A stretch of DNA of 64,000 bases. Source: Solirubrobacteraceae bacterium (GTDB lineage Bacteria; Actinomycetota; Thermoleophilia; Solirubrobacterales; Solirubrobacteraceae). The DNA is taken from NCBI GenBank assembly GCA_049513255.1, contig JBEKWH010000006.1:80890-144889 (forward strand). The letters are read 5' to 3'. This document shows positions 4,453-25,911 of the stretch, piece after piece. Numbering within the stretch: position 1 is the first letter of the stretch; each line of letters opens with the position of its first letter. A program made the position numbers and the translations under genes. The notes under the pieces are model-generated. The model ran no database searches and was not told the DNA's origin. It worked only from the letters and a program-made list of their open reading frames with translations.

Positions 4453-4498
4453 TCAGGTCACGTCGCGGCGGACGATCAGGTCACGTCGCGGCGGACGA
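4453..4498. repeat. Perfect 23-bp tandem duplication of the ABC permease 3' end, including its stop codon
   Basis: TCAGGTCACGTCGCGGCGGACGA at 4453-4475 and again at 4476-4498. Confidence 0.95.
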
Positions 4499-6103: not shown

Positions 6104-6618
6104 GCGCCCAGACGCTCCCTGACGACGGCCGGCTCGACGCCGAGCGTCGCGAGCAGGCCCGCCGCCGGGTCTGGACGTTGCAGCTCGAGGATCGCCGCAA
6201 GCACGTGCTGGGGGCCCGGGTGACGATGCCCGCGGCGCATGCCCTTGGAGGACTCGCGCAGCACGTTCGCCGCGGACGGCGTCAGGCGCAGGCGTTTATT
6301 GAGCACCGTCCTGATTGTCGGCCGCGCGGGCACGTCGCGGGGATCGCCGGCCGGCAGCGGCGGCACCTCAGGGGGTGCGGCCATGCCGATCGCGACCAGC
6401 GCCTCGCGATCCATCTCATCCAAGGCCGAGCGCGCGCGCTGGGCGTCCGAGCCGACGGCGCCGGCGAGCACGGGATCGTCCAGCAACGCCACGAGCAGAT
6501 GCTCGGTGCCGACCTTGCGGTCGCCGCGGCGCCGCGCTTCCTCGCGCGCCGCGATGTACGTCGACCACGGGTGATACTCCTCACCCGATCGCTGGCGCTT
6601 GGCGGGCTCGCCCATCAC
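6100..6618 (-). CDS. Clp protease N-terminal (ClpN repeat) domain protein
   Basis: AREEARRRGDRKVGTEHLLVALL and a second repeat HPGPQHVLAAIL; no AAA domain. Confidence 0.88.
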   Translation of the reverse strand: MMGEPAKRQRSGEEYHPWSTYIAAREEARRRGDRKVGTEHLLVALLDDPVLAGAVGSDAQRARSALDEMDREALVAIGMAAPPEVPPLPAGDPRDVPARPTIRTVLNKRLRLTPSAANVLRESSKGMRRGHRHPGPQHVLAAILELQRPDPAAGLLATLGVEPAVVRERLGA

Positions 6619-7221: not shown

Positions 7222-7428
7222 TCAGCGAGCCGAAGGCATCAGGGCTGGGTCCGCCACAGCTTCGCCGATGATCGGTCGCGTAGCCCAAAGCCCAAGCGTC
7301 TCGCCGGGCTCCCCCCAGGCTATCTGCGCAAGCTCCGCTCGCATCAGCGCGAGCGTAAGCTGCGCTTCCGGCCCGAAGGTGCGGTCGATGTCTATGTCGG
7401 TGCTACTCGGAGCTTCCGCTTGCGTCAT
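7222..7428 (-). CDS. Small hypothetical protein (68 aa) overlapping the proteasome-like gene
   Basis: A strong GGAGG RBS precedes the ATG (GGAGGCCCAAATG). No recognisable domain. Confidence 0.45.
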   Translation of the reverse strand: MTQAEAPSSTDIDIDRTFGPEAQLTLALMRAELAQIAWGEPGETLGLWATRPIIGEAVADPALMPSAR

Positions 7429-8224
7429 TTGGGCCTCCCTCCGGATGGAAAGCGTCGAGCTGCTTCTGAAGCTCTGCGCTGGTGATCGACCGGAACCCGT
7501 CGAACATTAGAGCAAGCCGGTCAAGATCGTCGTTGCTTAGTCGTTTGAGCCCATCTCGGCTAATCACGGCCATCTCCGTGTCACGGCCAACACCGGGGGC
7601 TACCTCTGCCCCGCGCTTGGCGGCGTAAACCCGGAAAAGCGTCTGCTTGTAGTCGGCGGTGGCGCTGTGGACGTAGCCGGCCATCGTCGAGAGCACATGC
7701 GGCGCTCCGATGCCGATCGCAGCCCAGCCGATGGGATCGTGGTTGGTGTTGCCGCCACCAGGATTGCCGTTGGTATGGATATGGGCGCCCGACTCATCGA
7801 CGCCAGCTAGGAGCAACTCCACGCCCAAGTTGAACTGCGAGAGCTGGTTCTCAAGCAGCATGACGACCTGTTCGTTGAGTGCACGGTGCATCCCATGGAA
7901 CGATTCGAGCGAGAGTCCATGCGGGTTTAGGACGGTCTGCGCGGCCCGCCAGGTTCTCGCGGCGGCGTAGCGTTCGCCTAGCGCAACAGCGATGGCGGCA
8001 ATGTGCTCGGGCAAATCATCGGCAGCCGCGTCATTGACGAGCCTCATGCCGTCGAGCGTGTTCCCAGCGACCATGACGGCGGCCTTCGGGGTGAGCTGCA
8101 CCATCTTTGAGCCCGAGTGCTCGAACTCTAGGAAGTCGCCCGCCGTGACCATACGATCGGTCGCAACCACGGCTCGTGGCTCTCCATCCTCCCCCTTGCA
8201 CAAGGCGGCAATACATACGGTCAC
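7403..8224 (-). CDS. Proteasome beta-subunit-like Ntn-hydrolase fold protein
   Basis: N-terminal M-T, ATDRMVT (Asp17-like), GSK (Lys33-like), VAGN, LLLAGVD, AAIGIG and late GVG motifs. An RBS (GGAGGG) lies upstream. Confidence 0.72.
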   Translation of the reverse strand: MTVCIAALCKGEDGEPRAVVATDRMVTAGDFLEFEHSGSKMVQLTPKAAVMVAGNTLDGMRLVNDAAADDLPEHIAAIAVALGERYAAARTWRAAQTVLNPHGLSLESFHGMHRALNEQVVMLLENQLSQFNLGVELLLAGVDESGAHIHTNGNPGGGNTNHDPIGWAAIGIGAPHVLSTMAGYVHSATADYKQTLFRVYAAKRGAEVAPGVGRDTEMAVISRDGLKRLSNDDLDRLALMFDGFRSITSAELQKQLDAFHPEGGPNDASGSSE

Positions 8225-8402
8225 GCAGTCCCTCCCCGATCGGTGTCATGCGCGCATTCTCCGCGCGCGGCGCTCAGATCATAATGGTTGGAACTTCGGC
8301 CGTGGTGTTCCCGACTAGCGGCCTTCCCCGCGTTCGATCTCTTCGGGAGCTGTTTGAGCGTCGCCCCGTAGACGCGCAGCATGGCCAGGACCTGGACACG
8401 GC

Positions 8403-9410
8403 CTATTTCGTGTTCGGAGGCCTCGGCGTCTGAACGAGCTGGCGCGTCAGCGCATCGAATCGAACGAACTCGTCGTTCTTCGCGGTAGTCCTTGCCGACG
8501 CGTTACGCAGCGGCGGCTGTGACGCTGCCTGTTCGGCGTGCCACTGCTCGTCCCATTCGCGACGCTCGTCCTGCGCCTCGTCCGTCATCAGGGCCTCCCA
8601 TACGTAATCGCTGCTGAGGATGACGCCGACCCCGTAGCGGCTGGGCAAACCCTCGGGATTGGCGTCCTCGTCGGTGTAGTGCGCCGTGAAAAGGCCTGCA
8701 AACGTCGCCGTCCATGCAAGCGCGCGCAAGGTCGGTGGCGTACCATTACGCGCCTGCAATGGCCGGTCGGAAGCAACGGCCGTATCCGTGGCATACAGGG
8801 TCTGGACGAAGCATGGCGAGCCGCTGAACCCGTCATATGAGCGACAGTCAAGAAGGTGCCCGGTATAGCGGTAGGTGTGGGTGTCGTATGTTTTCTCGAT
8901 CGGCACTTCAAGGTTCCCGATGTTCCCGGCTCGCGCCATAGGCACATCGTGGAGAGGCGCGAAGATTCCGATGTAGTAGACGATCGCGCCCAGCATTGGG
9001 ACCACGCCGTGGGGGAGGATTTCGTCGATACGCACGGCCTGGAAGCGCCTCGCCAGATCATTCGGGTAGGGCGCAACCGCAAGATCAACCTCGGGGAGAG
9101 GCTGACGCCAGCCCCGCACTGGCACCGGCTCCGAAAGCTCGTGCGGCGCAAGCGGGTCGGGCACTTCGACCGCCAGCTCCACCTGGTTGCGGACATTGTG
9201 ATCTGCCGTGAGCAAGTACGGCCACCATCTGCCCCGCCGCCCCGGGGTTGGCGGGCTGGGCGCGCTAATGATGAACGCCGTACCCCGCAGTTCGCCCGCG
9301 CTCGTGAGTCGCACGGCCGCGTTGAGTGCCTCGGCTTCTAGCGGCATCGCACCGGGCTGCTGAACACGCCATCGGGGGAGATCGCACAGGCTGCACCCAT
9401 TCGCGCGCAT
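8403..9410 (-). CDS. Trypsin-like serine protease (no signal peptide or PDZ domain); start may be 9347
   Basis: Catalytic triad motifs YLLTADH, VDLAV and GFSGSPCF. Confidence 0.8.
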   Translation of the reverse strand: MRANGCSLCDLPRWRVQQPGAMPLEAEALNAAVRLTSAGELRGTAFIISAPSPPTPGRRGRWWPYLLTADHNVRNQVELAVEVPDPLAPHELSEPVPVRGWRQPLPEVDLAVAPYPNDLARRFQAVRIDEILPHGVVPMLGAIVYYIGIFAPLHDVPMARAGNIGNLEVPIEKTYDTHTYRYTGHLLDCRSYDGFSGSPCFVQTLYATDTAVASDRPLQARNGTPPTLRALAWTATFAGLFTAHYTDEDANPEGLPSRYGVGVILSSDYVWEALMTDEAQDERREWDEQWHAEQAASQPPLRNASARTTAKNDEFVRFDALTRQLVQTPRPPNTK

Positions 9411-9436
9411 GCTACCGCCCTCCTTCCGACACGTCT

Positions 9437-9481
9437 GGGGCCGTCTCCGAAGACTTGGCCGGTCGGGAGACGGCCCCTTTT
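9437..9481 (+). terminator. GC-rich hairpin followed by TTTT (intrinsic terminator-like)
   Basis: GGGGCCGTCTCCGA (9437-9450) pairs with TCGGGAGACGGCCCC (9463-9477), followed by TTTT. Confidence 0.5.
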
Positions 9482-9629
9482 CCGATTCCAGGACGAAGCG
9501 TGATCCAACCTATCCGCTGGCCCCGACAGCTATTCCGACCGGCCCAAGGTCTAGCTTCATTCAGCACAAAGGCTCGCCAAACCGGCCGGTCGGGTGAGCG
9601 CCAATTCCAAGACGAATGGAGATCACCCA

Positions 9630-9926
9630 ATGGCTATCCAAATAGTTGCTGTGAACACGTCACACGAACTGACGACCAAGGGCGCCGGTGCGATGCACAA
9701 GCACATCACCGAAGTCAAGACTGCCGGAGGTCGCGTGCTCACTCGCGCAGAAGTCGTGAGCAAAATCAAAGGGGGGACCGAGAGCTTCTGCACCAAGGTC
9801 GACGGCAAAGAACCGCTCGTCGTCGTCGTGACGTGTCCGCACTGCGCCAATGGCAGCTACATCCGCACGACGGAGGACAGCACGACTGCCGACAACCTGC
9901 TGAGCCTGCCGTCCTTTACGTCGTAG
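9630..9926 (+). CDS. DUF3892 family protein
   Basis: HKHITEV..TRAEVVSKI.GG..F.T...YIRTTEDSTTADNLLSLP matches the family pattern. RBS GGAGA lies upstream. Confidence 0.8.
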   Translation: MAIQIVAVNTSHELTTKGAGAMHKHITEVKTAGGRVLTRAEVVSKIKGGTESFCTKVDGKEPLVVVVTCPHCANGSYIRTTEDSTTADNLLSLPSFTS

Positions 9927-10272
9927 AGTCCTCGCCGCCCGCGACCGAGGCGCCAACCAGGCTGGTGATGCGTCTCGGTCGTACCGGCGGAAACGGAGCC
10001 GGGAGAATCGCAGTGTCCGGTCCGGGATGGCACCCGTAGCCGAGCGACACGGCGATGGCGTCAGCGATAAAGGGAATCAGGCGCTCGGCCTCCAGCACGG
10101 AGAACTCCGCGCCTAGCCGTCGATCGAGCACCAAGAGCACGCGGTCTTCGCCTTGCGGATGAGCCTCCAGAAACGGCACTTGCCAGCCGTTGACGACCAC
10201 ATCATGGTGCTCGCGTGGGCCACTGTAGGCGACTGCCATGCTCGGCATATCTGAGCACTCATGCTCTTGCAT
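9916..10272 (-). CDS. Hypothetical protein
   Basis: Protein-like composition (VNGWQVPFLEA...EAERLIPFIADAIAVSLGY.CHP) with a GGAAAGGA RBS-like element upstream. Confidence 0.65.
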   Translation of the reverse strand: MQEHECSDMPSMAVAYSGPREHHDVVVNGWQVPFLEAHPQGEDRVLLVLDRRLGAEFSVLEAERLIPFIADAIAVSLGYGCHPGPDTAILPAPFPPVRPRRITSLVGASVAGGEDSTT

Positions 10273-10453: not shown

Positions 10454-10891
10454 TCAGGATGCGGTCGGTGTGATCGTGACCGCTTCCTTCTTGGCCTCCT
10501 TCGGCAGCGGGATCGTCACTTCGACCACGCCGTCGTGGGTCTTGGCCTTGATCTTCTTGGCGTCCACGCCGGATGGCAGCGCCATCGAGCGGGAGAACGA
10601 CCCGTAGCGACGCTCGCGGCGCAGGAAGTGCTTGTCCTTCTCCTCCTTGCGCTCCTCGTGCTGGCCAGAGACCGTGAGGATGTCGTCCTCGACCTCGATC
10701 TTGACCTCCTCGGGCTTGATCCCCGGCACGTCAGCGCGCACCACGAGATTGCCGTTGTCGCGCTCGACGTCCACAGCCGGCATCCAGGCGCGCTCGCGCC
10801 CCTCGGCCAGCTCCTCGAACATGCGGTCGAAGCGACTGCGCAGCTCGCCGAGCTCGGCGAAGGGTTCCCAACGGGTAAGTGCTCCAGGCAT
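10454..10891 (-). CDS. Hsp20/alpha-crystallin small heat shock protein
   Basis: PAVDV...ADVPG, RRERRYGSFSRS and DGVVEVTIP motifs. RBS AGGAGA. Confidence 0.96.
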   Translation of the reverse strand: MPGALTRWEPFAELGELRSRFDRMFEELAEGRERAWMPAVDVERDNGNLVVRADVPGIKPEEVKIEVEDDILTVSGQHEERKEEKDKHFLRRERRYGSFSRSMALPSGVDAKKIKAKTHDGVVEVTIPLPKEAKKEAVTITPTAS

Positions 10892-12830: not shown

Positions 12831-13348
12831 GTCCTGACCTGCACCGGATAGTCGAGGTTGATCGTCACACCGCCCGAAGCTATCACCGCGCGAAACGTGA
12901 GCGGATAGCCGACAGCCGTCGCCGGCCACTTGAACACATCTGCGAAGTGCCCGTTGAACGTGTAGTGAGAGCGGCGCGCCACGACCTGCCCGCCGAACAG
13001 ATACTCGTAGCTCACGCTCGCCGCGGCCGGACGCCCGCCGCGCGTGACCGTGAACTGGATCGGCCATCGCACGTTCACCTTTGGCTGATGGGTGCCGGCG
13101 CTCAGCGTCGCGGTGATGCCGCCGGCGCTCGCGCTGACCGTATGCGCGCTGGTCGGCGCCGTTGCGATCACGGGCTGCGGCGCGGTGGTGGCCGTAGAGG
13201 TCGTGTGACTCGTGGTGGTGGCCTGGGTCGAAGAGCTGTTGGAGGAGGAGCCGCCGCAGCCGGCCAGCAGCAGTGCAGCGGCAAGCACCGCGATCGGCCA
13301 CGGAGACCTGCGGCTCGCCATGACGCTCTGAATGCTCGAACTCGTCAT
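12827..13348 (-). CDS. Putative lipoprotein with Ser/Thr-rich linker
   Basis: Lipobox LLLAGC and RBS AGGAG; coupled to the ABC ATPase gene. Confidence 0.75.
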   Translation of the reverse strand: MTSSSIQSVMASRRSPWPIAVLAAALLLAGCGGSSSNSSSTQATTTSHTTSTATTAPQPVIATAPTSAHTVSASAGGITATLSAGTHQPKVNVRWPIQFTVTRGGRPAAASVSYEYLFGGQVVARRSHYTFNGHFADVFKWPATAVGYPLTFRAVIASGGVTINLDYPVQVRT

Positions 13349-13422
13349 CGCCCCGCTCCTCTCTCGTTGGAAGGTTGCCCCAGCCGCGGTGCCCAGCTTC
13401 GCTCTCCAAGGTACAAAGGTCA

Positions 13423-13482
13423 TCGGTGTATCTCCGCTGTGGCGCAGGCGTGTTCCCGGCCGTGGCTGCGGGATTTCACGGA
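13423..13482. promoter_or_regulatory. Three putative 16-bp regulator sites at exact 22-bp period in a divergent promoter
   Basis: TCGGTGTATCTCCGCT (13423), CAGGCGTGTTCCCGGC (13445) and TGCGGGATTTCACGGA (13467). Confidence 0.55.
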
Positions 13483-13498
13483 TGGCTCGGTCGCCTGC

Positions 13499-15088
13499 AT
13501 GGGGCACCATTCCGGCATCGAGTCGGCACTCCTCTGCGCGCTGGCGGATCCCGCCACCTATGGCGGTGTGCCGGTCACCGTGCACGAGACGCACGCGTCA
13601 TGGGTGTTCGTGGCGGGGGAGCGTGCGTACAAGGTCAAGAAGCCCGTCGCCCTCGGCTTCCTTGACTACAGCACGCTCGCGCGCCGGCATCACGCCTGCA
13701 TCGAGGAGGTGCGCGTCAACCAGGAGCTCGCGCCGGGCATCTACCTCGGCGTGTGCGCGGTCGTCAAGACCGACACCGGCTTCGCGCTCGCGCCCGATGA
13801 CGGGTCACTCGAGGCCGTCGAGTACGTCGTCGAGATGTGCAGCTTCGACGAGTCGCACACGCTCGCGGGCGTGATCGCGGACGGGCGCCTCACGGACGCG
13901 CAGCTCGATGCGGTCGCTCATCGCCTGGCCGCGTTTCATCGCGACGCGGCGGTCGTCGCGGGTGGTAGCGCGCAACAGGTACTGCACGTCTGGCAGCGAA
14001 ATCTTGGCGAGCTGGAGGCCAACGCCGCGCCGCTGGAGCTGCCGGTCGCGCTCGCCTCGAGTTTCGCCGACACCTTCACGCGGGTGCACGCGCACGAGAT
14101 CGAACAGCGCCGAGACGCCGGGTTGGTGCGCGACGGGCACGGCGATCTGCGCTGCGAGCATGTGCTGGTGATCCCGGACGTGCGCGTCGTCGACCGCATC
14201 GAGTTCGACCCCGCGCTGCGCCACATCGACGTCGCCAGCGATCTGGCGTTCCTGACGATGGACCTCGAGGCCCACGACCAGCGCTGGGCCGCCGACAGGC
14301 TTCTGTCGGCCTACCGCGACAGCGGGATCGACGCGGGCAGCGACGCGCTGCTCAGCTTCCACGCGGCGCACCGAGCGCTCGTCCGAGCGAAGGTCGCGCT
14401 GATTGCGGCGGGCGAGCACGAAGACGAGCGCCGCACCGCGCTGCTCGCGCAGGCGCGGTCGCTGTGGGCGCTGTCCGAGCGCCTGTGCTGGCGCGCGCGA
14501 GCACCCGTCGCGGTCGTCGTGTGCGGACCGGCGGGCAGTGGCAAGTCGACGCTCGCGATCGAGCTCTCGCGCCGCTCGGGTCTCGAGGTGCTGTCCTCCG
14601 ACGCGATCCGCAAGTCGGCCGCAGGCTTGCAGGCCACCGACCGCGGGGGTCCAGACCTCTACAGTCACCGCGTCACGCATCACACCTACGAGCTGCTCGC
14701 CGGGCACGCGCACGCGCGCATCGACCGCGGCGACGGGGTGATCGTGGATGCGACCTGCCGCTCGCGCAGCGAGCGCTCGACGCTGCTCGGCCGCCTGGCG
14801 CGCACCGGTGCGCCGCGCCTGGTCGTGCGCTGCGAGGTCCCGCTCGCGGTCGCGCTGGCGCGCGCCGCGCAGCGCGCTCACGACCCCGCGCGCGTGTCCG
14901 ACGCGAGCCCGGCGATCGTCGCCGAGCAGTACCAGGAGTTCCAGCCGCTCGAGGAGCTGCCGCCGGGGGACGTCTTCGGTTTGGACACGCGGCTGCCCCT
15001 CGACACCCAGGTCTGCAAGGTGACGCTCGCGATCGACCGCCTGCTGGCGGCGCGTGCCGGCGTTCCAGCGTGCTCTCAGGAGGCTTAG
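13499..15088 (+). CDS. Bifunctional aminoglycoside-phosphotransferase-like kinase / AAA_33 P-loop protein (Rv2004c-like)
   Basis: ETHASWV, AYKVKKPV, RDGHGDLRCEH and DRIEFD, followed by GPAGSGKST and VIVDAT. Confidence 0.93.
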   Translation: MGHHSGIESALLCALADPATYGGVPVTVHETHASWVFVAGERAYKVKKPVALGFLDYSTLARRHHACIEEVRVNQELAPGIYLGVCAVVKTDTGFALAPDDGSLEAVEYVVEMCSFDESHTLAGVIADGRLTDAQLDAVAHRLAAFHRDAAVVAGGSAQQVLHVWQRNLGELEANAAPLELPVALASSFADTFTRVHAHEIEQRRDAGLVRDGHGDLRCEHVLVIPDVRVVDRIEFDPALRHIDVASDLAFLTMDLEAHDQRWAADRLLSAYRDSGIDAGSDALLSFHAAHRALVRAKVALIAAGEHEDERRTALLAQARSLWALSERLCWRARAPVAVVVCGPAGSGKSTLAIELSRRSGLEVLSSDAIRKSAAGLQATDRGGPDLYSHRVTHHTYELLAGHAHARIDRGDGVIVDATCRSRSERSTLLGRLARTGAPRLVVRCEVPLAVALARAAQRAHDPARVSDASPAIVAEQYQEFQPLEELPPGDVFGLDTRLPLDTQVCKVTLAIDRLLAARAGVPACSQEA

Positions 15089-15756: not shown

Positions 15757-17613
15757 TCAGCCCGCCAGCTCGGCCAGCAGCAGGCGGTGCCCGGCGATCC
15801 AGGCGATGACGGCGTGCGTGCCAGCGCCGCTGAGCGCGGCATTGCGCAGCACCCCTGTGCCGAGCGTTCGCGGCGAGGAGAACGAGGCCCCGGCGGGCCG
15901 TACGGAGTAGACGAGTCGCTCGCGATCGAATCGGCCCTCCCCCCACGCGACGATCGCGCTGTCGCTCGTCGCCGCGGCCACCGGGTATTGCGAGACCGTG
16001 CTCGGCGGGCTCAGCTGCTCGGGCGCGGAGAAGGCGCCGTTTGCCTGCTCGCCGGCCGCCTCAAGCGCGCCGGTCACGGGCGACTCCGCCTGCGCTGAGG
16101 CATCTCGGCCAACCGTCCACGCGGCGACCGGGCCGCCTTCGACCGGCAGCGCGACCACTGGCCCGTTGTACGTCGTGATGCTCGGCGGCGGGTTGGGCAC
16201 CTCCCCAGCCGTCTGCGATGCCGCGTAGGACAGATCTGGCTCGAGCGTCGAGACCTGCAGCAGCCAGGGCAGCGTTCCCTCGACGCTGTAGCCGACGGCG
16301 ACGCCGCCCGGTCCCGAGAACACGGCGTCGCCGTCGCCTTCCGAAGATGGGAGCGACTGCTGGGTGCCGGCCGACAGCACCTGCGGCGCATCGAACGTGC
16401 GCGCTCCTGCTGGCAGCACGGCGGCGGCGACCTGAGCGTTGACGGGTGTCGGCCCGAGCACCAGCGGCGTTCGATAGCTCACCGCGACATCGCCGGCGGC
16501 GTCCACGCCGGCGCCGCCCACACTCGCGTAGTAGGCGAGCGCGAGCGTGCGCGGTGCACCGAAACGGACCGAGCCGGCGGCGATCGCATACCTGATCTCC
16601 GCGCTCGTCGCCGCTTCCAGGCCTGGGACGTCCTGCCCCCAGACCGCGACAACACGTTCGTCCGTCGCGACGATCGACCAATCGGGCACGTTCGCTGTGA
16701 CGGACAGCAACCGCTGGGGCGTGCCGAACGGCTTCCCCGCAAGCGCGATCGCGCCGAGCAGCAGGCGCCGCCCATGCCCACCGCTCGGCATCGCCTCCCA
16801 GATCACCGCTGCGGTGCCGTTGGCGGCGATCGACACCTCGGGTCTGAAGCCCGGGCCGAGATGCTGCGGCGCCCCCAGACGTCCGCCGGCACTCACGTGT
16901 CGCACCACGATGCCGGTGAGCGCGTTCCACGCAACCACCGAGCTCCCGGCGGCGTTGACGGCAACCGCCGGCGGCGCGCTGAGTTCGGGCACGCCCGCCG
17001 AGGCGACCGTGATCGCCCGCCCAAAGCTCGGCGCGACCGAGCTCGGCGCGACCGTGGCGGCGACGGCCTGGCGGCAGCCGAGTCGCCGCTCGGGCCCTTC
17101 GTCGGTCAGCCCGCCATGCGAGCGTCGCAGCGACACCGTGGCGCGCAGAACGCTGGCGGCGCCATACACATAGACGCGCAGCTGCAGGCTCTGGCCGACG
17201 TGTGGCGCCGGAAGCAGCTTTGTCCCGGCAGGTACTTCCAGCTCCTGTGTGTAGCACGGGGCCGCTCGTCCGGCGCCGACTATTCCCCAGCCTTTGTCCT
17301 GGCCGGGATGCGGTGCAGCCGGGAAGCGCGTCAGGCCGAACCGGTCGAGGCCGACCCCGGCGAGCGGGCTGCCGTTGCGCAGACGCGGCACCCTGCGATT
17401 GAGCCGCAGGTATACGTAGTAGGAGTCGCCACCCGTGTGAGGCTCGAAGGTCACTATCGGGGACCCCACCAGACGAAAGGCCGCTGAACCGGCCGACGTC
17501 GCCGCGTCCCGCTCGACGCGTCCACTCGCGGGCATCGTGAGCAACGCGAGGCACACGAGCGCGCTCGAGCAAGCGATCGCGAGCGGCCGCGCAGGACCTT
17601 GGCGCAACCTCAT
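15757..17613 (-). CDS. Secreted hypothetical protein with repeated beta-rich units
   Basis: Signal-peptide-like N-terminus from the ATG at 17613, which overlaps the CYTH-CHAD stop (ATGA). Repeated G.(S/A)VVAW and G.FG.P..L motifs. Confidence 0.7.
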   Translation of the reverse strand: MRLRQGPARPLAIACSSALVCLALLTMPASGRVERDAATSAGSAAFRLVGSPIVTFEPHTGGDSYYVYLRLNRRVPRLRNGSPLAGVGLDRFGLTRFPAAPHPGQDKGWGIVGAGRAAPCYTQELEVPAGTKLLPAPHVGQSLQLRVYVYGAASVLRATVSLRRSHGGLTDEGPERRLGCRQAVAATVAPSSVAPSFGRAITVASAGVPELSAPPAVAVNAAGSSVVAWNALTGIVVRHVSAGGRLGAPQHLGPGFRPEVSIAANGTAAVIWEAMPSGGHGRRLLLGAIALAGKPFGTPQRLLSVTANVPDWSIVATDERVVAVWGQDVPGLEAATSAEIRYAIAAGSVRFGAPRTLALAYYASVGGAGVDAAGDVAVSYRTPLVLGPTPVNAQVAAAVLPAGARTFDAPQVLSAGTQQSLPSSEGDGDAVFSGPGGVAVGYSVEGTLPWLLQVSTLEPDLSYAASQTAGEVPNPPPSITTYNGPVVALPVEGGPVAAWTVGRDASAQAESPVTGALEAAGEQANGAFSAPEQLSPPSTVSQYPVAAATSDSAIVAWGEGRFDRERLVYSVRPAGASFSSPRTLGTGVLRNAALSGAGTHAVIAWIAGHRLLLAELAG

Positions 17614-18947
17614 CGGTGCTCCAGCTCGTAGAGGCGCGCACCCAGGCGCAACGCGCGGCGCTGGAGCTGCCTGCGCCGACGAGCGATCAGCCGCTGCAGA
17701 GCGCTCTGCTCGGCGCGGTCGGCGAAGCAATCCGCTCGTTCTCGGACACGCTGGGCGAGTATCGCGAGATCGTGATCGTCGCCCGTGAGGTCCGAGATGC
17801 GGTGGGCGAGCAGGATGAGTGGCTCCATCCGCTGAGGCGCGACCTCTCCGAGGATCTCGGCCGCGTGCCAGAGCTCCTTCGATCGCTTGCGCACCTCGTG
17901 CAGGCGCTCATCGCTGGGTTCTGCGGCGGCGGCTCGCACCGCTCGCCTGCCATTGCGGTAGATGCGCTGAAAGCCACTGTCGAGGGCCTCGACCTCGTCG
18001 TGCTCGAAGCGCCATCCCGGCAGGCGCTGACGCGCGCGGGCCAGCTCCTGGAGAACCGCTTCATCGGCCGTGGTGGTTCGTCCGGGGCCGCCCCCGGCGG
18101 CTTGCAGCTCGCCCACGAGCGTCTCGCGCAGCGTCGAGAATCCCGAGGCCGGCAGGTGCTGCGCGTAGAGCACGCAGAGGCTGTCCAGCGTGTCGATCAG
18201 AACCTCGCTGTCGCGAGCGCTGGAGAGTTGCTGCCCGGCGTCTCGGAAGCTGGCGAGCTCGTGCTCATAGACGGACGGCTGCAGCTGGCCTCGTGCCAGC
18301 CTGAGCGCTGCGCGTATGCGCTTGAAGCTCTTGCGAGCCTCGTGCACAGCCTCGCCGGGATCGCTTCCAGCCAGGCCACTGAGTTGGTCGGTTGCCGAGT
18401 CGATCTGCGCGCGAACCAGGCGTCTGAGACCGTCACCGACGGGCTCACCCACCGCAAGCGTGAAGCTCGGTGTCTGCGCACGCACCGACGGAACCCCTTC
18501 ATCCGCCAGTTGCTGATTGGCATAGCGACGATCGCCGGTGACCTCCGGACCGAACCATCCTGGCGGCTTGAAGCGCTGCGCCTGTGCTTCGGAGTCGAAC
18601 TCCACCTCGGCGATCGCGAGGCCGTCCAACGCGCCGGCGTAGACGTCCAGCTCGATCATCAGAGCTTCCTCGCCGGGGATCGTGTAGCGCACCTTTTCGA
18701 GTTGGTGTCCCTCGGTCAGAGGCCACAGACGCTCGAAGCGCTCCGGCTCGATTGCATGCTCGTACTCCTCGCGAGCCAGCCCACCTCCCTGCTTGACGGT
18801 CAGCAGGCCGTGGCCGTCGCTGGCCCGCAGGCGCACCTCGAGGTCCTCGCCGGCGCTGAGCAGATAGCCCTGCGCCAGGTGCCGGTGCGGGTAGCTCTCC
18901 AGCCCGGGCGGGGGGTGCGCGACGAGGAACTTGCGCTCGATCTCCAT
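17610..18947 (-). CDS. CYTH (triphosphate tunnel metalloenzyme) - CHAD fusion protein
   Basis: N-terminal MEIERKF (ExExK) and IELDVY..AEVEF motifs; CHAD motifs VHEARKSFKRIRAAL, RDSEV and LHEVRKRSK. Confidence 0.92.
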   Translation of the reverse strand: MEIERKFLVAHPPPGLESYPHRHLAQGYLLSAGEDLEVRLRASDGHGLLTVKQGGGLAREEYEHAIEPERFERLWPLTEGHQLEKVRYTIPGEEALMIELDVYAGALDGLAIAEVEFDSEAQAQRFKPPGWFGPEVTGDRRYANQQLADEGVPSVRAQTPSFTLAVGEPVGDGLRRLVRAQIDSATDQLSGLAGSDPGEAVHEARKSFKRIRAALRLARGQLQPSVYEHELASFRDAGQQLSSARDSEVLIDTLDSLCVLYAQHLPASGFSTLRETLVGELQAAGGGPGRTTTADEAVLQELARARQRLPGWRFEHDEVEALDSGFQRIYRNGRRAVRAAAAEPSDERLHEVRKRSKELWHAAEILGEVAPQRMEPLILLAHRISDLTGDDHDLAILAQRVRERADCFADRAEQSALQRLIARRRRQLQRRALRLGARLYELEHR

Positions 18948-18964
18948 CGCGAGCACCGTCCGCG

Positions 18965-21900
18965 TCAGGCCGTCTGCCAGGAGGCGACCGCAGCGAGGTC
19001 GGCCGTCGGGCGCTCCTCTTCGAGCTCGACGGCTCCGGCGAAGACGCGCCCGGTCGCACCGTCGATGCTGATCTCCTCGCCTTCGGCGAGCTCGTGGTCG
19101 CCGATCGTCACTCGGCGTCGATCGAGATCGATGTCCATGTCGGTCGCGCCCACTACGCACGGCCTGCCAAGCTCGCGCGCGACGACGGCGGCATGCGAGG
19201 TGCTTCCGCCGCTGCTCGTGAGCAGTCCCGCCGCGACGATCAGCCCGGCGAGATCCTCGGTGCTGGTCTCGCGCCGCACCAGAACGGGACTGCGGCCGGC
19301 GCCGGCGAGGCGCTTGGCGGCTTGAACGTCGAGCGCGATCGGACCGCTTGCGACGCCGGTGCTGACCGGCTGCGCTCGGCAGAGCTCGTGAGCTCCGTCA
19401 TTCTCGCGCACATGCGTGCGATGGATGCTCTGCAGGTCGAGGCCCGCGAGTCGCTCGCGCGCCTCGGTCGTGGAGAGCAGGGATTCGCGGACCTGATCCA
19501 CAGCGATGTGCAAGCTCGCCCACGGGGTGCACTTGGCGGGCCGTGTCTGCAGCAGGAAGAGCTTGCCCTCCTCCAGGGTGAACTCGAACTCCTGGGCGTC
19601 GTGGAACTCTCGCTCGAGCACACGACAGATCTCCAGCAGGCGATGGTGGACCTCGGGTGCCAGCAGCGCCAGCTGCCCGACCTCGTCGGGCGTGTGGCGC
19701 CCACTGACGAGATCCTCGCCTTGCGCGTCGCGCAGGAACTCGATCGAGGGACGGTGCTCGCCGGTGACAGGATCGCGGGTGAAGCCGACGCCGGAGCCGG
19801 ATAGGCCGCCGGCGTTGCCGAAGACCATGCGCTGCAGGATGACCGCGGTGCCGAGCGTCTCGGGAAGATCGTGCAGGCGCCGGTAGTCGCGCGCCTTGGG
19901 CGCATCCCACGACTCCAGCACCGCTCGCACGGCTGCCTGCACCTGATCGATCGGGTTCTGCGGGAACGACTTGCCGGTTGCGGCGCGAAACAGCCCCAGG
20001 TGCTCAGCGGTGAGCTCAGCGAGCGTGCCCGCGTCCAGGTCGCGCGGGCGCTGTACGCCGGCTGCCTGTATGCGCGTGGCGGTGGCCCGCTCGAACGACT
20101 CCATCGGGCAGCGGGCGACGACACGGGCATAGGACTCGACCAGCCGTCGATAAGAGTCCCAGGCCAGCCGCGGGTTGCCGGTCAAGGCGATCAGGCCCTC
20201 GACGCTCTCATCGCACAAGCCGACGTTCAGCACCGTCTCGAGCATGCCCGGCATCGACGCGGGAGCGCCCGAGCGCACCGACAGGATCAGCGGGCGCCGC
20301 GCGCTTGCGAGGCGCAGGCCGCTGCGCTCCTGCAGCGCGCTCAGCGCAGCGGAGACGAGCGTCCGCACCCGCGCCTCGCCATGACCCGACGCGAAGCTCC
20401 GGTATGCCCCGGTGCCTAGAATCGCCGCGTCGGGAACGGGCAGCTTGGCGCGCGCCATCCGCGCGAGGCCGTAACCCTTGGCGCCGATCGACGCCGCATC
20501 GGGGACCTCGCCGTCCCCGCGCCCGACGACATACAGCTCATCGATCGCGCTGCTCTCATCGCGCGCGGGCAGCACTCGCGCCGAGGACGGCTCCGGCTGC
20601 GCCGCGAGAGGCTCAGAGCGCACCACGTTGCCGAGCACCTGGCGCCGCAGCAGCTGCGCGGCGCGCATCAACGCGTCCGCCGCTTCCTCACACGCCTGCG
20701 TCGCCTGCGCGAGGACGAACAGCTCCCCAGCCGCCTCGACCTCCCGCACGAGCGCCGCCTGCACCTCGCGCAGCCCCTCGTCGGCGTCGCGCTCCAACTC
20801 CACGATCCGATGAGTGGTCTCGAGGAACACGCCCATGTCCTCGCTGGGACCGCCGCGGTGGATCTCGCGGGCGAGATGCACCGCACGCAGATGACACCGG
20901 GCCGCCTCGAGCACCAGCGCCATCATCTGTCGTGACTGGCCCAGCACGGCCCCCGCAACGCGGCCTTGAGGCAGCAGCGACCACGAGAACGCAGCCTCCT
21001 CGAATGCGTCGGCCACGTCGTCCGCCTGCTGCACGAGCTCGAGGAAGAACGCCGGCTCCTCCGCGCGCGCACAGGCTCCACGGACGTCGTTGACCAGTTT
21101 GTCGGCGCGCTGCTCCCACTCGCGCGCGAGCCGCGCCATCTCGCCTCGATCCTGGCTTGGACGCTCGAGCGCCGCCTGCTCCAGCGCGTCGCGCGCCGCC
21201 TCACCGAGCGATACGACCAGCTCGGCGTGCGCGGCGATCAGCTCGAACAGCTCCTGGCGAGCGGTGCGCACGTAGCCGATCAGCTCGGCGCGCACCTCAT
21301 CGGCCACCAGCGATGGAGACTGTCCCGCGAGCAGGCCCTCGGAGCAGATCCGCAGGACGGCACGCAGATACGAGACGGCGGCAGGCGCGCCGAGCACGTC
21401 GATCAGCGAATCGCCCGCCCGCGTGCTCCGCCCACCGGCGAAGGTCAACGCGTCGTACACGAGCTGATCGCCGCCGGCAAGCAGAAACGCCATGTGCCCG
21501 AACTCGCGCTCCGCGGCCCAGTCCAGCAGCTCGACCGCAGCCCGGTTCCCGACGAGCCGGCGAAGCCGCTTGCGCGCGCGGTTCCAGTCGATCAGGAAGA
21601 CCATGCGCGACCCGAGCAGCTCCAGAAACGCGACGAGCTCGGCGTCATCGCCCGCCGTGAAGCAGCCGACGGCGAGGTGATAGACACCCTCGCCCGTGGC
21701 GCCCTCACGACGCGAGCGCGTGTCCTGCCAGCGCAGCTCCTGAGCGGACAGCATCCGCTGGAAGAACAGCAGCCGAGCCAGGTGCACGTCCGTGTAGATC
21801 ACCGTGACCTCGCGCTCGATGATCTTCACCACGACCACATGCACGTCGGTCTCGCCGATGTCGTTCTGCACGACCAGCGCATCGCCGCTGCGCGTGGCCA

Positions 21901-22546
21901 CGGTCGCAAGGCCGGGATGCGCGAAACGCAAACGCTGGGTGCGCTCTACACCACGCGCGAACGCTCCCACCAACGGACGATCGGCCGCCCCGATCCCGTA
22001 CGCCAGCGCCCCCGAGATCGATTCGCTCGCCAGGCTCCCCGCGAGCTGGTTGAGCTCGCGATGAGCGTCCATCACGACGAGGTGAAGGCTGTCGTGATCA
22101 CCCCGCCGGGCGCTCGTCAACCGCGAGATGTCCTGCGCCGTGATCGCGTCTGCGGCAGGCTGCACAGCGTCCCCAAGCTGGCGCAGGCGCTCGTCGAGCT
22201 GCTGAGCGGCGCCGATTCCGGCTACCTCCAATGGGACGAGCATCGTCCGCACCTCCTCGAACGCCATGCGAACCAAGCCCTCGGCCCCGGGAATCAGGTA
22301 GTCGCCATCCTCGCCTCGTGCGCTGGAGCGCACGACGCGATCGAGATCCGCGTCCGAGACACCGCTGGCGAGGCGCTCCTCACGCAGATCGGATGCCCCC
22401 GCATCACCGTCCGCTGCGGCCTGCGCGTTTTGCAGAAGCGTGAGCAGATACTTGACCCGGTCGTTTGCCGCAAGCGCCTTGCCCACCAGCCCCGGCAACA
22501 GCAGCTCGTGCTCGCCAAGCGTCTCGATGATGCGCTCCTTCGACAT
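18965..22546 (-). CDS. Fusion of a PhoU/DUF47-like N-terminal region to a PPDK ATP-grasp plus phospho-His domain, lacking the C-terminal PEP/pyruvate domain
   Basis: PPDK motifs IGAKG, LILSVRSGAPASMPGMLETVLN, GEDLVSG, QEFEFT..KLFLLQTR and GGSTSHAAVVAR. The protein stops right after the His domain (ASWQTA*). Helical E..AD / DDVAD.FEEAA repeats occur in the N-terminal half. Confidence 0.85.
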   Translation of the reverse strand: MSKERIIETLGEHELLLPGLVGKALAANDRVKYLLTLLQNAQAAADGDAGASDLREERLASGVSDADLDRVVRSSARGEDGDYLIPGAEGLVRMAFEEVRTMLVPLEVAGIGAAQQLDERLRQLGDAVQPAADAITAQDISRLTSARRGDHDSLHLVVMDAHRELNQLAGSLASESISGALAYGIGAADRPLVGAFARGVERTQRLRFAHPGLATVATRSGDALVVQNDIGETDVHVVVVKIIEREVTVIYTDVHLARLLFFQRMLSAQELRWQDTRSRREGATGEGVYHLAVGCFTAGDDAELVAFLELLGSRMVFLIDWNRARKRLRRLVGNRAAVELLDWAAEREFGHMAFLLAGGDQLVYDALTFAGGRSTRAGDSLIDVLGAPAAVSYLRAVLRICSEGLLAGQSPSLVADEVRAELIGYVRTARQELFELIAAHAELVVSLGEAARDALEQAALERPSQDRGEMARLAREWEQRADKLVNDVRGACARAEEPAFFLELVQQADDVADAFEEAAFSWSLLPQGRVAGAVLGQSRQMMALVLEAARCHLRAVHLAREIHRGGPSEDMGVFLETTHRIVELERDADEGLREVQAALVREVEAAGELFVLAQATQACEEAADALMRAAQLLRRQVLGNVVRSEPLAAQPEPSSARVLPARDESSAIDELYVVGRGDGEVPDAASIGAKGYGLARMARAKLPVPDAAILGTGAYRSFASGHGEARVRTLVSAALSALQERSGLRLASARRPLILSVRSGAPASMPGMLETVLNVGLCDESVEGLIALTGNPRLAWDSYRRLVESYARVVARCPMESFERATATRIQAAGVQRPRDLDAGTLAELTAEHLGLFRAATGKSFPQNPIDQVQAAVRAVLESWDAPKARDYRRLHDLPETLGTAVILQRMVFGNAGGLSGSGVGFTRDPVTGEHRPSIEFLRDAQGEDLVSGRHTPDEVGQLALLAPEVHHRLLEICRVLEREFHDAQEFEFTLEEGKLFLLQTRPAKCTPWASLHIAVDQVRESLLSTTEARERLAGLDLQSIHRTHVRENDGAHELCRAQPVSTGVASGPIALDVQAAKRLAGAGRSPVLVRRETSTEDLAGLIVAAGLLTSSGGSTSHAAVVARELGRPCVVGATDMDIDLDRRRVTIGDHELAEGEEISIDGATGRVFAGAVELEEERPTADLAAVASWQTA

Positions 22547-22699: not shown

Positions 22700-23179
22700 T
22701 CAGCTGCTCACGTCCTTCATCCGCCGCCCGTCCTCGAGGTAGACGCAATGCTTGCACGCCGTCGCCGCCAGCACCCGACGCCGAACCGGCCCGCTCAGCA
22801 GCGCGGCGGCCCCTGTCGCCTCGACGAACCGGTGCTCGTCGATCTCGACGCCGTCGACAGCGATCCTCGCCAGGGTCTCGTCAGGCAGGCGCCCGCAGTC
22901 GAACAGGAAGCGCACACCGCCGGGACGACCGGGACGCGGTTTCAGGAAGTCGACGCAGGCGAGCCGGCTGCGTTTGATCTCGAGGCGGCACTCCTCGAAG
23001 GTCTCGCGCCGGCACGCCTGCCAGGGCGACTCGCCGGCTTCCTCGATCTGGCCGCCGGGGATCGTCCATCCCGCCTTGTAGGTGGGCTTCAGGATCAGCA
23101 GCCGCCCGGCTTCGTCGAAGATCAGCGCTCCCGCCGAGGCGGGAATCCGCGGCAGCACGCGGGGCGGCTCGGCAGACAT
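22700..23179 (-). CDS. NUDIX hydrolase
   Basis: Nudix box WTIPGGQIEEAGESPWQACRRETFEE. Confidence 0.92.
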   Translation of the reverse strand: MSAEPPRVLPRIPASAGALIFDEAGRLLILKPTYKAGWTIPGGQIEEAGESPWQACRRETFEECRLEIKRSRLACVDFLKPRPGRPGGVRFLFDCGRLPDETLARIAVDGVEIDEHRFVEATGAAALLSGPVRRRVLAATACKHCVYLEDGRRMKDVSS

Positions 23180-23349
23180 CCCGGTCAGAGCGTAGAGCAG
23201 CTCCGTCCAACCGGACCCCGAGCGTGAGGTCCGTAGTCCTCACGGAGACGCCCGCGCGGCTTACCCCGATGTGCGCCCGGGCTCCACCGGAATAGCTTGG
23301 AGGGGTCCCGATGGATCACATCTGCAACCGGGCCCAACAAGGAGTCAGC

Positions 23350-23721
23350 ATGAACGTCACAACTCAAGAGCTCGCTGCCGAGAGATGGGCGGAGTACTTC
23401 GACTCAATCGCCCCCAGCGTCGAAGGGCTGCTGGTCACGATCGAGGTCATGAGCGAGGAGCTGGGTGACCAGACCGACGTCGAGCGGCTGCCGCTGCAGA
23501 CGATCGGCTACGACCACAAGGACAACGTGCTGGAGGTCGGCGTCGGTGGGCGCACGCCGCGCTTTCCGGTCGTGCTGCGGCACTTCATCTCCAGCCCGCA
23601 GACGATCGCGGTCGAGGAGTCAGGTCAACCAGCCCCGAGTGCGATCCTCGTCACGGACGCAAGCGGCGATCGCACGCTGATTCGCCTGTTCAAGCCCGCC
23701 ACCATCGAGGCATTGACATGA
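23350..23721 (+). CDS. DUF5335 family protein
   Basis: W..YFD.I...VTIEV..EELGDQ...LPL..I.YD.KDNVLEV pattern; RBS AGGAG. Confidence 0.75.
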   Translation: MNVTTQELAAERWAEYFDSIAPSVEGLLVTIEVMSEELGDQTDVERLPLQTIGYDHKDNVLEVGVGGRTPRFPVVLRHFISSPQTIAVEESGQPAPSAILVTDASGDRTLIRLFKPATIEALT

Positions 23722-24146
23722 GTGACACCGAGCCGAGCATCATCCAGCACAGCGTCGAAAAGACACACATCTGGCTGAACGAGGTCGCCGCGGCGCTGGG
23801 CGATGACGACCGCCAGTACGCCTACCGCGCGCTGCGCGCGGTGCTGCACGCGTTGCGGGACCGTCTGACCGTCGACGTGGCGGCCAAGCTCGCCGCCCAG
23901 CTGCCGACGCTGATCCGCGGCGTCTACTACGAAGACTGGGATCCCAGCCGCACACCGCTGGCCATCCACGACGTGGGGACGTTTCTCGACCATGTCGCCG
24001 AGGAGGGCCACATGGCTGGAGAGACCGAGGCGTCGCTCGCGGTCACCGCGGTCGCACGGGTGCTGCGGGCGCACGTCTCCGACGGCGAGATCGACGGCCT
24101 GCTGGCGGTCCTGCCCGACAGCTTCAAGCCGCTGATAACCGCTTGA
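23718..24146 (+). CDS. DUF2267 family protein
   Basis: KTHIWL.EV, AYRALRAVLHALRDRL and QLPTLIRGVYYE motifs. Confidence 0.9.
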   Translation: MSDTEPSIIQHSVEKTHIWLNEVAAALGDDDRQYAYRALRAVLHALRDRLTVDVAAKLAAQLPTLIRGVYYEDWDPSRTPLAIHDVGTFLDHVAEEGHMAGETEASLAVTAVARVLRAHVSDGEIDGLLAVLPDSFKPLITA

Positions 24147-24160
24147 GGAGGTGACAGCCG

Positions 24161-24550
24161 ATGTTCAAGAACGTGCTCGTGGGAGTTGATGGGAGGGCCA
24201 ATGGCCGCGACGCGATCGCACTGGCCACGCAACTGGTGGATCCCGATGGGAAGCTGACGCTTGCGCATGTGCACCGCGACGAAGCGGCAGAGCGCGAGTA
24301 CTCGCACAAGCTGCTGGAGCATGAGCGCAGCGGGGCCGCCGTCGAGGCCGAGCTCGTCAGCGTCGCCTCGACGAGTCCCGGCGCCGGCCTTCACCAGCAG
24401 GCGAGGGAGCTGGGCGCAGATCTGCTCGTGGTCGGCTCCTGCAGTCACGGAGTCCTCGGACGCGTGCTGCTGGGCGACGACTTGCGCGACGCCCTGGACG
24501 GCGCTCCCTGCACGGTCGCGGTCGCGATTCAGGGCTACGCCGGGCAGTAG
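24161..24550 (+). CDS. Universal stress protein (single domain, possibly truncated)
   Basis: MFKNVLVGVDG and ADLLVVGS..HG.LGRVLLG..APC.VAV motifs. Confidence 0.85.
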   Translation: MFKNVLVGVDGRANGRDAIALATQLVDPDGKLTLAHVHRDEAAEREYSHKLLEHERSGAAVEAELVSVASTSPGAGLHQQARELGADLLVVGSCSHGVLGRVLLGDDLRDALDGAPCTVAVAIQGYAGQ

Positions 24551-25911
24551 CGCCGAAGCCAGTCGATCGCCAGGCGGCTGACCTCTTCCAGCGCGCCGGG
24601 CTCCTCGAAGAGATGCGTTGCTCCCGGCACGACGGCGAGCTCGCTGGGGCAGCGCAGCTGCCGCTGGGCTTCGCGGTTGAGCTCGAGCACCTGATGGTCG
24701 GCGCCACCGACGATCAGCAGCGTCGGCGCGCTCACGGCGCCAAGGTCCTGTGCGAGATCGGGACGTCCACCGCGCGAGATCACCGCGAACACTCGATCTC
24801 CCAGCTCTGCGGCGGCCGTCAGGGCGGCTGCCGCGCCCGTGGAGGCGCCGAAGTAGGCGAGCTCGAGACTCGCGGACACGCTGCGCTCTGAAAGCCAGGT
24901 GCTTGCCGCGACGAGCCGTGAGGCGAGCAGCGGGATGTCGAAGACGTTGGCCCGGTCGAGCTCCTCGCGCGGGGTGAGCAGGTCGAGCAGCAGCGTCGCG
25001 TAGCCAGCTTCGTTCAGCGTCCGCGCCACCGCCCGGTTACGCGGGCTGAGTCGGCTCGAGCCGCTGCCGTGAGCGAACGCGACGATGCCCTCGGCGCCTG
25101 TCGGGATGTTGAGCTCGCCGGCGAGCGACACGTATGGATCGAGCGCGATCGTGACCTCATACGAGAGCGGCGCAGCACCCGCTGGCGGGCGTGCAGCGCG
25201 CTTGACCGCGTCGTCCAGCAGCGCGGCCACCTCCTCGTCGGTGGTCGGCTCGAAGTCGTCATACCAGAGGCCGACCGCCCACAGGTCCTCCGGCATCTCC
25301 ACGCAGACGATCTCATCTGCCTCCTCGCGCAGCGCTTCCACCGACGCCGGCGCCGCGACGGGCACGGCGAGGATCACGCGGGCGGCGCCGCGCTCGCGCA
25401 GCGACCGCAGCGCCGCCCGCGCGGAGCGGCCTGTCGCGAGGCCGTCGTCGACGAGAATCGCGGTGCGCCCGGTCAGCTCGACCGCCGCGCGGCTCGCGCG
25501 GTAGCGACGAGTCCGCCCGGAGAGCTCGCTCGCGACCCGTCCGATCAGCGCTTGCAGTTCGGCGTGGGAGAGGCCGATCGCACGCACGGTCTCATCGCTG
25601 AGCACCTGCACGCCACCCTCCGCGAGCGCACCGATGGCGTACTCGGGATTCTGCGGCGCCCCGATCTTGCGCACTACCACCACGTCGAGCGGCGCACCGA
25701 GCGCGCGTGCGACCTCGGCGGCCACCGGTACCCCGCCGCGAGGAATGCCGATGATCACCGGCTGCTCGTCGCGGAACCGCTCGAGTCTGGTTGCCAGCCG
25801 TCGTCCCGCATCCTGCCGGTCCTTGAAGCGCGCCCCGGATGGGGCGAGCAGCGGCGGGTCGTCGAGACAGGTGACGGCGCCCGTGCGGTGGGGGATCGAC
25901 CGTGCAGCCAT
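24535..25911 (-). CDS. Phosphoribosyltransferase - dienelactone-hydrolase-like fusion (Rv0571c/Rv2030c-like)
   Basis: FKDRQDAG, PRGGVPV and VDDGLATG motifs, then HGSGSSRLSPRN, YFGASTGA, SRGGRPDLA and ATHLFEEPG. Confidence 0.92.
   Translation of the reverse strand: MAARSIPHRTGAVTCLDDPPLLAPSGARFKDRQDAGRRLATRLERFRDEQPVIIGIPRGGVPVAAEVARALGAPLDVVVVRKIGAPQNPEYAIGALAEGGVQVLSDETVRAIGLSHAELQALIGRVASELSGRTRRYRASRAAVELTGRTAILVDDGLATGRSARAALRSLRERGAARVILAVPVAAPASVEALREEADEIVCVEMPEDLWAVGLWYDDFEPTTDEEVAALLDDAVKRAARPPAGAAPLSYEVTIALDPYVSLAGELNIPTGAEGIVAFAHGSGSSRLSPRNRAVARTLNEAGYATLLLDLLTPREELDRANVFDIPLLASRLVAASTWLSERSVSASLELAYFGASTGAAAALTAAAELGDRVFAVISRGGRPDLAQDLGAVSAPTLLIVGGADHQVLELNREAQRQLRCPSELAVVPGATHLFEEPGALEEVSRLAIDWLRRYCPA

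Follow-up and report, generated by a model that had tools for sequence, protein, structure and literature searches.

In a 64,000-nucleotide stretch of Solirubrobacteraceae DNA (the window; assembly GCA_049513255.1, contig JBEKWH010000006.1, positions 80,890 to 144,889), we describe a gene, here called gene A, whose 1193-residue product joins a 643-residue N-terminal module (the N-module) to a truncated pyruvate, phosphate dikinase (PPDK). Judged from sequence comparison, the Solirubrobacterales gene A appears to encode in one chain what is otherwise a conserved dikinase made of two proteins, and it is probably a phosphate-handling enzyme rather than a pyruvate enzyme. We regard the chances as evenly balanced that it is a non-pyruvate dikinase with its acceptor site in the N-module and its third substrate in the inorganic phosphate (Pi) pool.

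Gene A lies on the minus strand at 18965-22546 (coordinates are those of the window), as supported by its open reading frame (ORF) and translation, more than 120 clusters of full-length homologues, and an AlphaFold2 model of the whole chain with a predicted local distance difference test (pLDDT) score of 83. The window has a GC content of ~70% and the third-codon-position GC of gene A is 0.85, a pattern as expected of a coding region. In the C-terminal half, residues 674-1050 (19397-20527, minus strand) form a PPDK-type ATP-grasp nucleotide-binding domain, recognized by Pfam PPDK_N (4e-33), by the NCBIfam model TIGR01828, by alignment to PDB sequences, and by Foldseek (1kbl, 2e-35), while residues 1051-1180 (19007-19396, minus strand) form the swivelling phospho-His domain (PEP-utilizers, 2e-20). 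Residues 17-527 of the 874-residue C. symbiosum PPDK align with this half at 39% identity, such that K690, R758, E986, E988, Q1000, and R1002 of gene A correspond to K22, R92, D321, E323, Q335, and R337, and the TSH motif T1116-S1117-H1118 to T453-S454-H455; the codon of the catalytic His1118 is at 19193-19195 (minus strand). Across 32 homologues the TSH motif is invariant, and the ATP/Pi-site residues are invariant or nearly so.

What gene A retains of PPDK (EC 2.7.9.1; C. symbiosum structures 1KBL/1DIK) is the ATP-grasp and swivelling phospho-His pair with its site residues; unlike PPDK, it carries an unrelated 643-residue module at its N-terminus and no phosphoenolpyruvate (PEP)/pyruvate TIM barrel. 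TIGR01828, which describes true PPDK, matches gene A over model positions 9-522 of 865 only and does not reach its cut-off (502 bits against 843), and because this alignment and that to C. symbiosum PPDK stop at 522/865 and 527/874, gene A ends in the linker helix that precedes the PEP/pyruvate barrel. We analysed 87 loci, i.e., the best 80 of a species-level scan, six looked up individually, and the window itself (with some duplicates, ~83 are unique). A search for the PEP-utilizers_C signature, using a PROSITE-type motif as a regular expression that is less sensitive than a hidden Markov model, found none in the 64-kb window or the 86 related loci, and none was present in any annotated neighbourhood that we looked up. 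These results bear on whether gene A might be a genuine PPDK that relies on a separate gene, somewhere else in the genome, for its barrel. Its C-terminal half is indeed closest to true PPDK, by the identity and TIGR01828 score given above; against this stand the sub-cut-off TIGR01828 score, the missing barrel signature, and the fact that the conserved partner is the N-module, and we consider a genuine PPDK very improbable. The preliminary description of this DNA, made from its letters, had called for an intact ATP-grasp and TSH domain, a stop where the barrel would begin, and an enzyme other than a pyruvate dikinase, and all three of these points held.

Re-use of this scaffold is already known; what is new is the partner domain. 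Rifampin phosphotransferase (RPH), glucan water dikinase (GWD), phenylphosphate synthase/HpeHI, and PigC/RedH each combine an ATP-grasp domain with a swivelling His domain that serves a lineage-specific acceptor, and some are split into subunits. Gene A follows the same principle, and their subunit-split forms resemble its two-gene form, whereas their acceptor modules are unrelated and its C-terminal half is much closer to true PPDK. Profile scores are in keeping with this distinction, with the rifampin phosphotransferase model NF041857 reaching 47 bits over the His domain only (cut-off 999) and the PigC and RedH models of NCBIfam scoring far under their cut-offs. The second-best NCBIfam match, NF004531 (PRK05878; 6e-121), is a model that we take to describe the short "PPDK" of mycobacteria of the Rv1127c type, which likewise has ATP-grasp and His domains only, yet gene A (404.6 bits) and the split truncated-PPDK partners described below (406 bits) both fall under its cut-off of 456.

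The N-module consists of two domains and, modelled alone, has a pLDDT of 91 and a predicted template modelling score of 0.83. Residues 411-643 (20618-21316, minus strand) form a PhoU/DUF47-like six-helix bundle, for which Foldseek returned the PhoU-fold structures 3L39 and 4Q25 (template modelling scores of 0.83 and 0.81, probability 1.0, root-mean-square deviation 2.4-2.5 Å), and the profile of the N-module family matches 3L39 at 2e-8. The Pfam family PhoU_div/DUF47 (PF01865) matches residues 434-630 at 8e-5 with 22.5-23.9 bits against a gathering score of 24.4, and 38 of 54 family members match it at E<=0.05, the best at 2e-11. The acidic motifs of the bundle are E478/D482, D509-D513-E516, E585/D589, and E620/D624, of which the E/DxxxD-type pairs E478/D482, D513/E516, E585/D589, and E620/D624 are kept in 46-53 of the 54 sequences; an E(D)XXXD motif of PhoU/DUF47 proteins is described in PMC5686610. 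The bundle shares fold and paired acidic motifs with PhoU/DUF47 proteins (PF01865; 3L39, 4Q25, 2OLT), whereas known members are stand-alone regulators of ~210 residues beside Pst/Pit and the bundle here is the C-terminal third of a dikinase-coupled 645-residue protein. Residues 644-673 (20528-20617, minus strand) are a flexible linker and the point of fusion, disordered in the AlphaFold2 model at 642-667 (pLDDT <50) and coinciding with a gene boundary in other phyla.

The remaining part of the N-module, residues 1-410 (21317-22546, minus strand), is a conserved domain in which helices surround a small antiparallel sheet. We found no relative of it in Pfam, in NCBIfam, among PDB sequences (family profile), or among PDB folds (Foldseek with the full and N-module models). 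We aligned 54 N-module members that are 32-46% identical to the window protein; 30 columns of the alignment are invariant, and all of these residues are present in the window protein; 24 fall within residues 1-410 and are rich in His, Asp, Lys, and Arg. They include K3, K32, R120, H155, H162, H210, N228, H236, D253, H255, R258, W273, D320, W321, and N322, accompanied by a nearly invariant basic helix, WNRARKRL (WNRARKRLR in the window protein). Such conservation is suggestive of a site for catalysis or ligand binding. The PhoU-like region that the preliminary description had placed in ~640 non-PPDK residues is a real PhoU fold, limited to ~411-643, and the 410 residues before it are a separate domain.

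An exhaustive HMMER search with residues 1-670 of gene A as query returned 1101 representative clusters of N-module relatives at E<=1e-3 and 287 at E<=1e-30, most of them 640-660 residues long and aligned end to end. Stand-alone proteins of ~645 residues match query residues 1-643 at E values of 1e-100 to 1e-154, and residues 1-643 are a complete, widespread, unnamed ~645-residue protein family. Database names for these relatives are only "hypothetical" or "uncharacterized protein Yka (UPF0111/DUF47 family)". Named sources in this search include Thiobacillus, Methanomethylovorans, and Halobacteria, and in a one-genome-per-species collection at least 571 stretches encode a relative, the best 80 of which include Ca. 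Accumulibacter, Ca. Methylophosphatis, Azonexaceae, Plasticicumulans, Geobacteraceae, Pirellulales, Dormibacterota, Methanoregula, Methanolinea, and Nitrososphaerales. The family spans Proteobacteria (Accumulibacter among them), Planctomycetes, methanogens, Nitrososphaerales, and Halobacteria. Full-text searches of the literature found no description of an N-module paired with a truncated PPDK, and PMC11361876, which concerns laterally acquired "phoU homologs" in Accumulibacter, does not mention a dikinase.

The fused form accounts for 18 of the 87 loci, all from Solirubrobacterales or unclassified actinomycete metagenome-assembled genomes, and a second, divergent fused clade was found. In 60 of the 87 loci (60 of the 69 unfused), a gene of ~535 residues with PPDK_N and PEP-utilizers domains instead lies immediately downstream of the N-module gene on the same strand, usually with a 4- or 8-nucleotide overlap or no more than 15 nucleotides away; most of the remaining nine loci are cut off by the end of the contig or were missed when ORFs were called. 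All seven split contexts that were read from annotated contigs show the same pair, and no other gene family stands beside it in more than ~15% of loci. Because the halves are fused in some lineages and adjacent genes in others (a Rosetta-stone case), they are expected to work together. We read them, from these patterns, as probable obligate partners, with the N-module standing in place of the pyruvate/PEP domain of PPDK.

That the fusion arose in assembly or sequencing, or is a pseudogene in decay, can be considered refuted, its probability being negligible. The more than 120 homologue clusters, at 53-100% identity, share the fused length (1186-1241 residues), and the gene A stretch is complete in at least 20 independent DNA runs from peat, wetland, and soil. 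RNA contigs from three metatranscriptome runs cross the domain junction with zero differences, and the high third-position GC likewise speaks against such an origin. The read-through that the preliminary description had named as a possible refutation of its reading is contradicted by the same data.

Is the pair an enzyme or a signalling device? PhoU/DUF47 proteins regulate the Pst and Pit transporters, and the N-module, which keeps their bundle and motifs, could be a PhoU-like sensor of Pi or polyphosphate (polyP) that gates the truncated PPDK or that receives a phosphoryl group from His1118 on one of its own invariant histidines, with a signal as its output, e.g., control of phosphate uptake or of entry into stress. 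The five invariant His residues of the N-module could accept phosphate, His_Phos_1/SixA-like genes occur in ~9 loci, and PstB-PhoU genes are near the pair in four loci (e.g., L025 and L074; L-numbers are our locus handles). On the other side, no third partner such as a response regulator, transporter, or kinase is conserved, with other families each at no more than 15% of loci; the 24 invariant polar positions of the 410-residue domain look more like an active site; and strict one-to-one operon coupling together with fusion is typical of enzyme subunits. We consider such a regulatory device unlikely. The preliminary description had suggested a Pi-responsive dikinase, and a Pi-sensing, PhoU-like regulatory role for the N-terminal half does not sit well with a complete ~645-residue protein bearing an invariant His/Asp-rich 410-residue domain, which is more like an acceptor or a catalytic partner.

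For the acceptor of the putative dikinase, the main clues come from gene neighbourhoods, where domains were searched on stop-to-stop six-frame segments. Pfam-confirmed polyP/Pi genes (PPX, CHAD, PPK2, PPK3-like, triphosphate tunnel metalloenzyme [TTM], PhoU-PstB, and PhoX) lie within 10 kb of the pair in ~17-20 of the ~83 unique loci, drawn from Actinomycetota, Alpha-, Beta-, and Deltaproteobacteria, Methanomicrobia, and Nitrososphaerales, and in six of these lineages they adjoin the pair without a break and share its strand. PPX, CHAD, or PPK genes are usually present at one or two copies per genome. Because at such copy numbers they would be expected in ~1-2% of random 20-kb windows (a background rate estimated by reasoning), their presence at ~20% of loci, in several phyla, amounts to a strong association. 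When the two genes upstream of each pair were assigned to Pfam families in an unbiased census, Ppx-GppA shared first place (5 of 143); downstream, the commonest family was pyridine-nucleotide-disulphide oxidoreductase, in archaeal loci.

The arrangements themselves are varied. A co-directional block of one thymidylate-kinase-like gene with CHAD, PPX, N-module, and truncated-PPDK genes occurs in Dongiaceae (L024, 620-7738) and Geobacteraceae (L034, 915-7978), with PhoU ~7 kb off in both and PstB too in L024. PPX lies directly upstream of the pair in L030 and L031, PPK2 is found in L014, L045, and L006, and CHAD in L069. Upstream of the pair in Methanoregula (L061, 7558-9393, plus strand) is a fusion of CHAD with PPX-domain-III/HD (Ppx-GppA), and L071 has a fusion of CHAD with a calcineurin-like metallophosphoesterase (4396-6426, minus strand) plus a PPX gene; these two CHAD fusions, both from methanogen loci, are unusual. 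Two tandem thymidylate-kinase-like genes with PPX mark the Nitrososphaerales loci L049 (1-3275) and L075 (813-3979), an arrangement that, like that of L024 and L034, corresponds to the PPK3 polyphosphate kinase operon type (PMC12995831); the list of typical polyP-neighbourhood genes in that paper includes no dikinase and no DUF47. Thiobacillus-type loci carry PhoX, glycogen phosphorylase, PPi-PEPCK, and His_Phos_1 genes. Several of them (L003 at 7305-7874 on the minus strand, L022, L026, L031, L032, and L036) also have, divergent and directly upstream of the pair, a gene for an Ala/Lys/Pro-rich, histone-H1-like protein of ~190 residues, which has a conserved C-terminal domain and no Pfam match.

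In the window, the polyP-related neighbour is gene B (17610-18947, minus strand), which follows gene A after a 17-nucleotide spacer (18948-18964, minus strand) that holds GGACGG 8 nucleotides ahead of the gene B ATG and no terminator-like site. PDB and Pfam matches identify its 445-residue product as a fusion of CYTH, of the NeuTTM type of TTM, with CHAD; the N-terminus MEIERK supplies the ExExK motif, the CYTH part matches the NeuTTM-type structures 3TYP/2FBL at 1e-35, and the CHAD part matches Pfam at 1.7e-32 and the structures 6QV7 and 3E0S. In motif and layout gene B resembles the NeuTTM/YgiF inorganic triphosphatases (CYTH alone or CYTH-CHAD), from which it differs in that its triphosphatase role is a prediction and its linkage to gene A is lineage-specific; CHAD is reported to bind polyP (bioRxiv 10.1101/567040). 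A CYTH-CHAD gene 52% identical to gene B also directly follows the gene in L002/L015. Gene A is transcribed in peat and wetland, where metatranscriptome contigs from four runs span the greater part of it as well as portions of gene B, and one RNA contig (18917-19259) bridges the spacer, which lends weak support to co-transcription of the two genes, the contigs being without strand information and DNA carry-over being possible. The preliminary description had noted the downstream CYTH-CHAD gene and proposed looking elsewhere for split halves beside CYTH, CHAD, and PPK2, and both were borne out.

Alternatively, the pair may be a dikinase for an organic acceptor (a sugar, glucan, phenolic, or other metabolite), the polyP neighbours being incidental. 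The scaffold is known to take on new acceptor domains, as in RPH, GWD, phenylphosphate synthase, and HpeHI, RPH and HpeI are among the Foldseek matches of the ATP-grasp part, polyP genes are absent near most loci, and the Thiobacillus-type loci contain the glycogen phosphorylase and PPi-PEPCK genes noted above. Set against this, the pair is found in organisms as different as halophilic archaea and soil actinobacteria, in contexts unrelated to one another, a distribution that favours a universal substrate; polyP/Pi genes are the only recurring specific neighbours; and the N-module includes a domain of PhoU type as well as an invariant helix that is strongly basic. An organic acceptor seems to us unlikely.

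For a dikinase that draws its third substrate from the inorganic phosphate pool, the following mechanism can be proposed. ATP would bind the PPDK-type ATP-grasp domain of the C-terminal half and, since every residue of the ATP/Pi site is kept, would most likely charge His1118 by the PPDK route (ATP + Pi + His -> AMP + pyrophosphate [PPi] + phospho-His1118). With the PEP/pyruvate barrel absent, the swivelling His domain would carry the phosphoryl group to a site in the N-module, built from the invariant His, Asp, Lys, and Arg residues that cluster in the 410-residue domain, from the acidic pairs that bind metal in the PhoU-like bundle, or from both. Together with this bundle and the basic residues of the invariant set, gene neighbourhoods point to Pi, PPi, triphosphate, or polyP as the acceptor. 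A candidate reaction is ATP + Pi + polyP(n) <-> AMP + PPi + polyP(n+1), which would be near-isoenergetic and freely reversible because two phosphoanhydride bonds are broken and two are made, with the reverse direction rebuilding ATP from AMP. In the window, the downstream NeuTTM-type triphosphatase-CHAD protein may act on short polyP of the same pool, in a gene neighbourhood of stress/dormancy type. We advance the more specific proposal, that the N-module and truncated PPDK constitute an unrecognised class of polyP (or PPi/triphosphate) enzyme, a "polyphosphate, phosphate dikinase", only as a tentative and rather doubtful one. The PPi/polyP-cycling idea of the preliminary description is, from gene neighbourhoods, a reasonable hypothesis.

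Several observations weigh against an acceptor in the inorganic phosphate pool. About 80% of the loci have no polyP or Pi gene nearby, four further annotated contexts likewise lack one, and the background rate with which the remainder are compared is itself a reasoned estimate. Among the four closest fused relatives with downstream sequence, three (L007, L009, and L010; 76-83% identical) have no CYTH-CHAD neighbour by tblastn with gene B, and in the fourth, L011, the start of a CYTH follows gene A before the contig ends. The AlphaFold2 model places the His domain on the ATP-grasp domain as in 1kbl and is uninformative on docking to the N-module, and the 410-residue domain has no structural relative to hint at a substrate. 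For every family member, then, the proposed function would follow from homology and gene context. The linkage of CYTH-CHAD to gene A is lineage-specific, and for the phosphorelay to CHAD raised in the preliminary description we found no evidence. Six-frame "CHAD" matches had been called in L007, L009, L010, and L011; they lie in a different frame within gene A, and with nothing found after gene A by tblastn in the first three, these three were dropped.

Around genes A and B, the window holds further features. A NUDIX hydrolase gene (22700-23179, minus strand; Pfam NUDIX 1.3e-13) lies 154 nucleotides upstream of gene A, is kept only in the closest relative, L007, and is possibly part of the gene A unit. 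After gene B, a 657-residue ORF (15757-17730, minus strand) has a signal-peptide-like start and a likely ATG at 17616, 4 nucleotides before the gene B stop; Pfam gave no match for it, and the other 86 loci lack a counterpart. A promoter and terminator scan was uninformative, with no promoters and one terminator-like site against 1.5 expected. Within gene A, ARAGORN called a tRNA-Ala (CGC) at 20267-20344 (minus strand); no Rfam tRNA was found there at gathering score, and the call is most likely spurious, the coding DNA being GC-rich. Positions 8001-10000 have a GC content of 63.5% against ~71%, with no ORF of the usual high third-position GC and no Rfam match.

In several genomes of Solirubrobacterales (the window, L010, L018, L020, L021, and L047), the fused gene has recurring neighbours of stress/dormancy type, a set comprising HSP20, a 713-residue protein with a C-terminal AAA_33 kinase-like domain, a universal stress protein (Usp), and a phosphoribosyltransferase-hydrolase fusion. 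In the window, such genes are at 10454-10891 (minus), 12947-15088 (plus), 24161-24550 (plus), and 24535-25911 (minus). This set presumably resembles the content of the mycobacterial DosR regulon. A divergent DUF5335-DUF2267-Usp block (23311-24550, plus strand) has a metatranscriptome contig depth of 22-56, against ~1-15 for gene A in the same peat/wetland runs, and one run contains a variant allele of the block with 26 substitutions.

Truncated PPDK genes of this type are routinely annotated as PPDK, and some sources do so for gene A homologues. With such a label, metabolic models of actinobacteria from peat and soil, polyP accumulators from wastewater, methanogens, and ammonia-oxidising archaea would acquire a spurious step in gluconeogenesis or glycolysis. 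The recurrent placement in polyP operons makes it a candidate that the pair catalyses a reaction still missing from the energy metabolism of polyP, PPi, and adenylates, and the natural fusion of Solirubrobacterales offers a convenient single-chain form of the enzyme. If the polyP reading is true, polyP could be started or extended without PPK1, PPK2, or PPK3, and polyP-accumulating bacteria, methanogens, and dormant soil actinobacteria could remake ATP from AMP via polyP and PPi.

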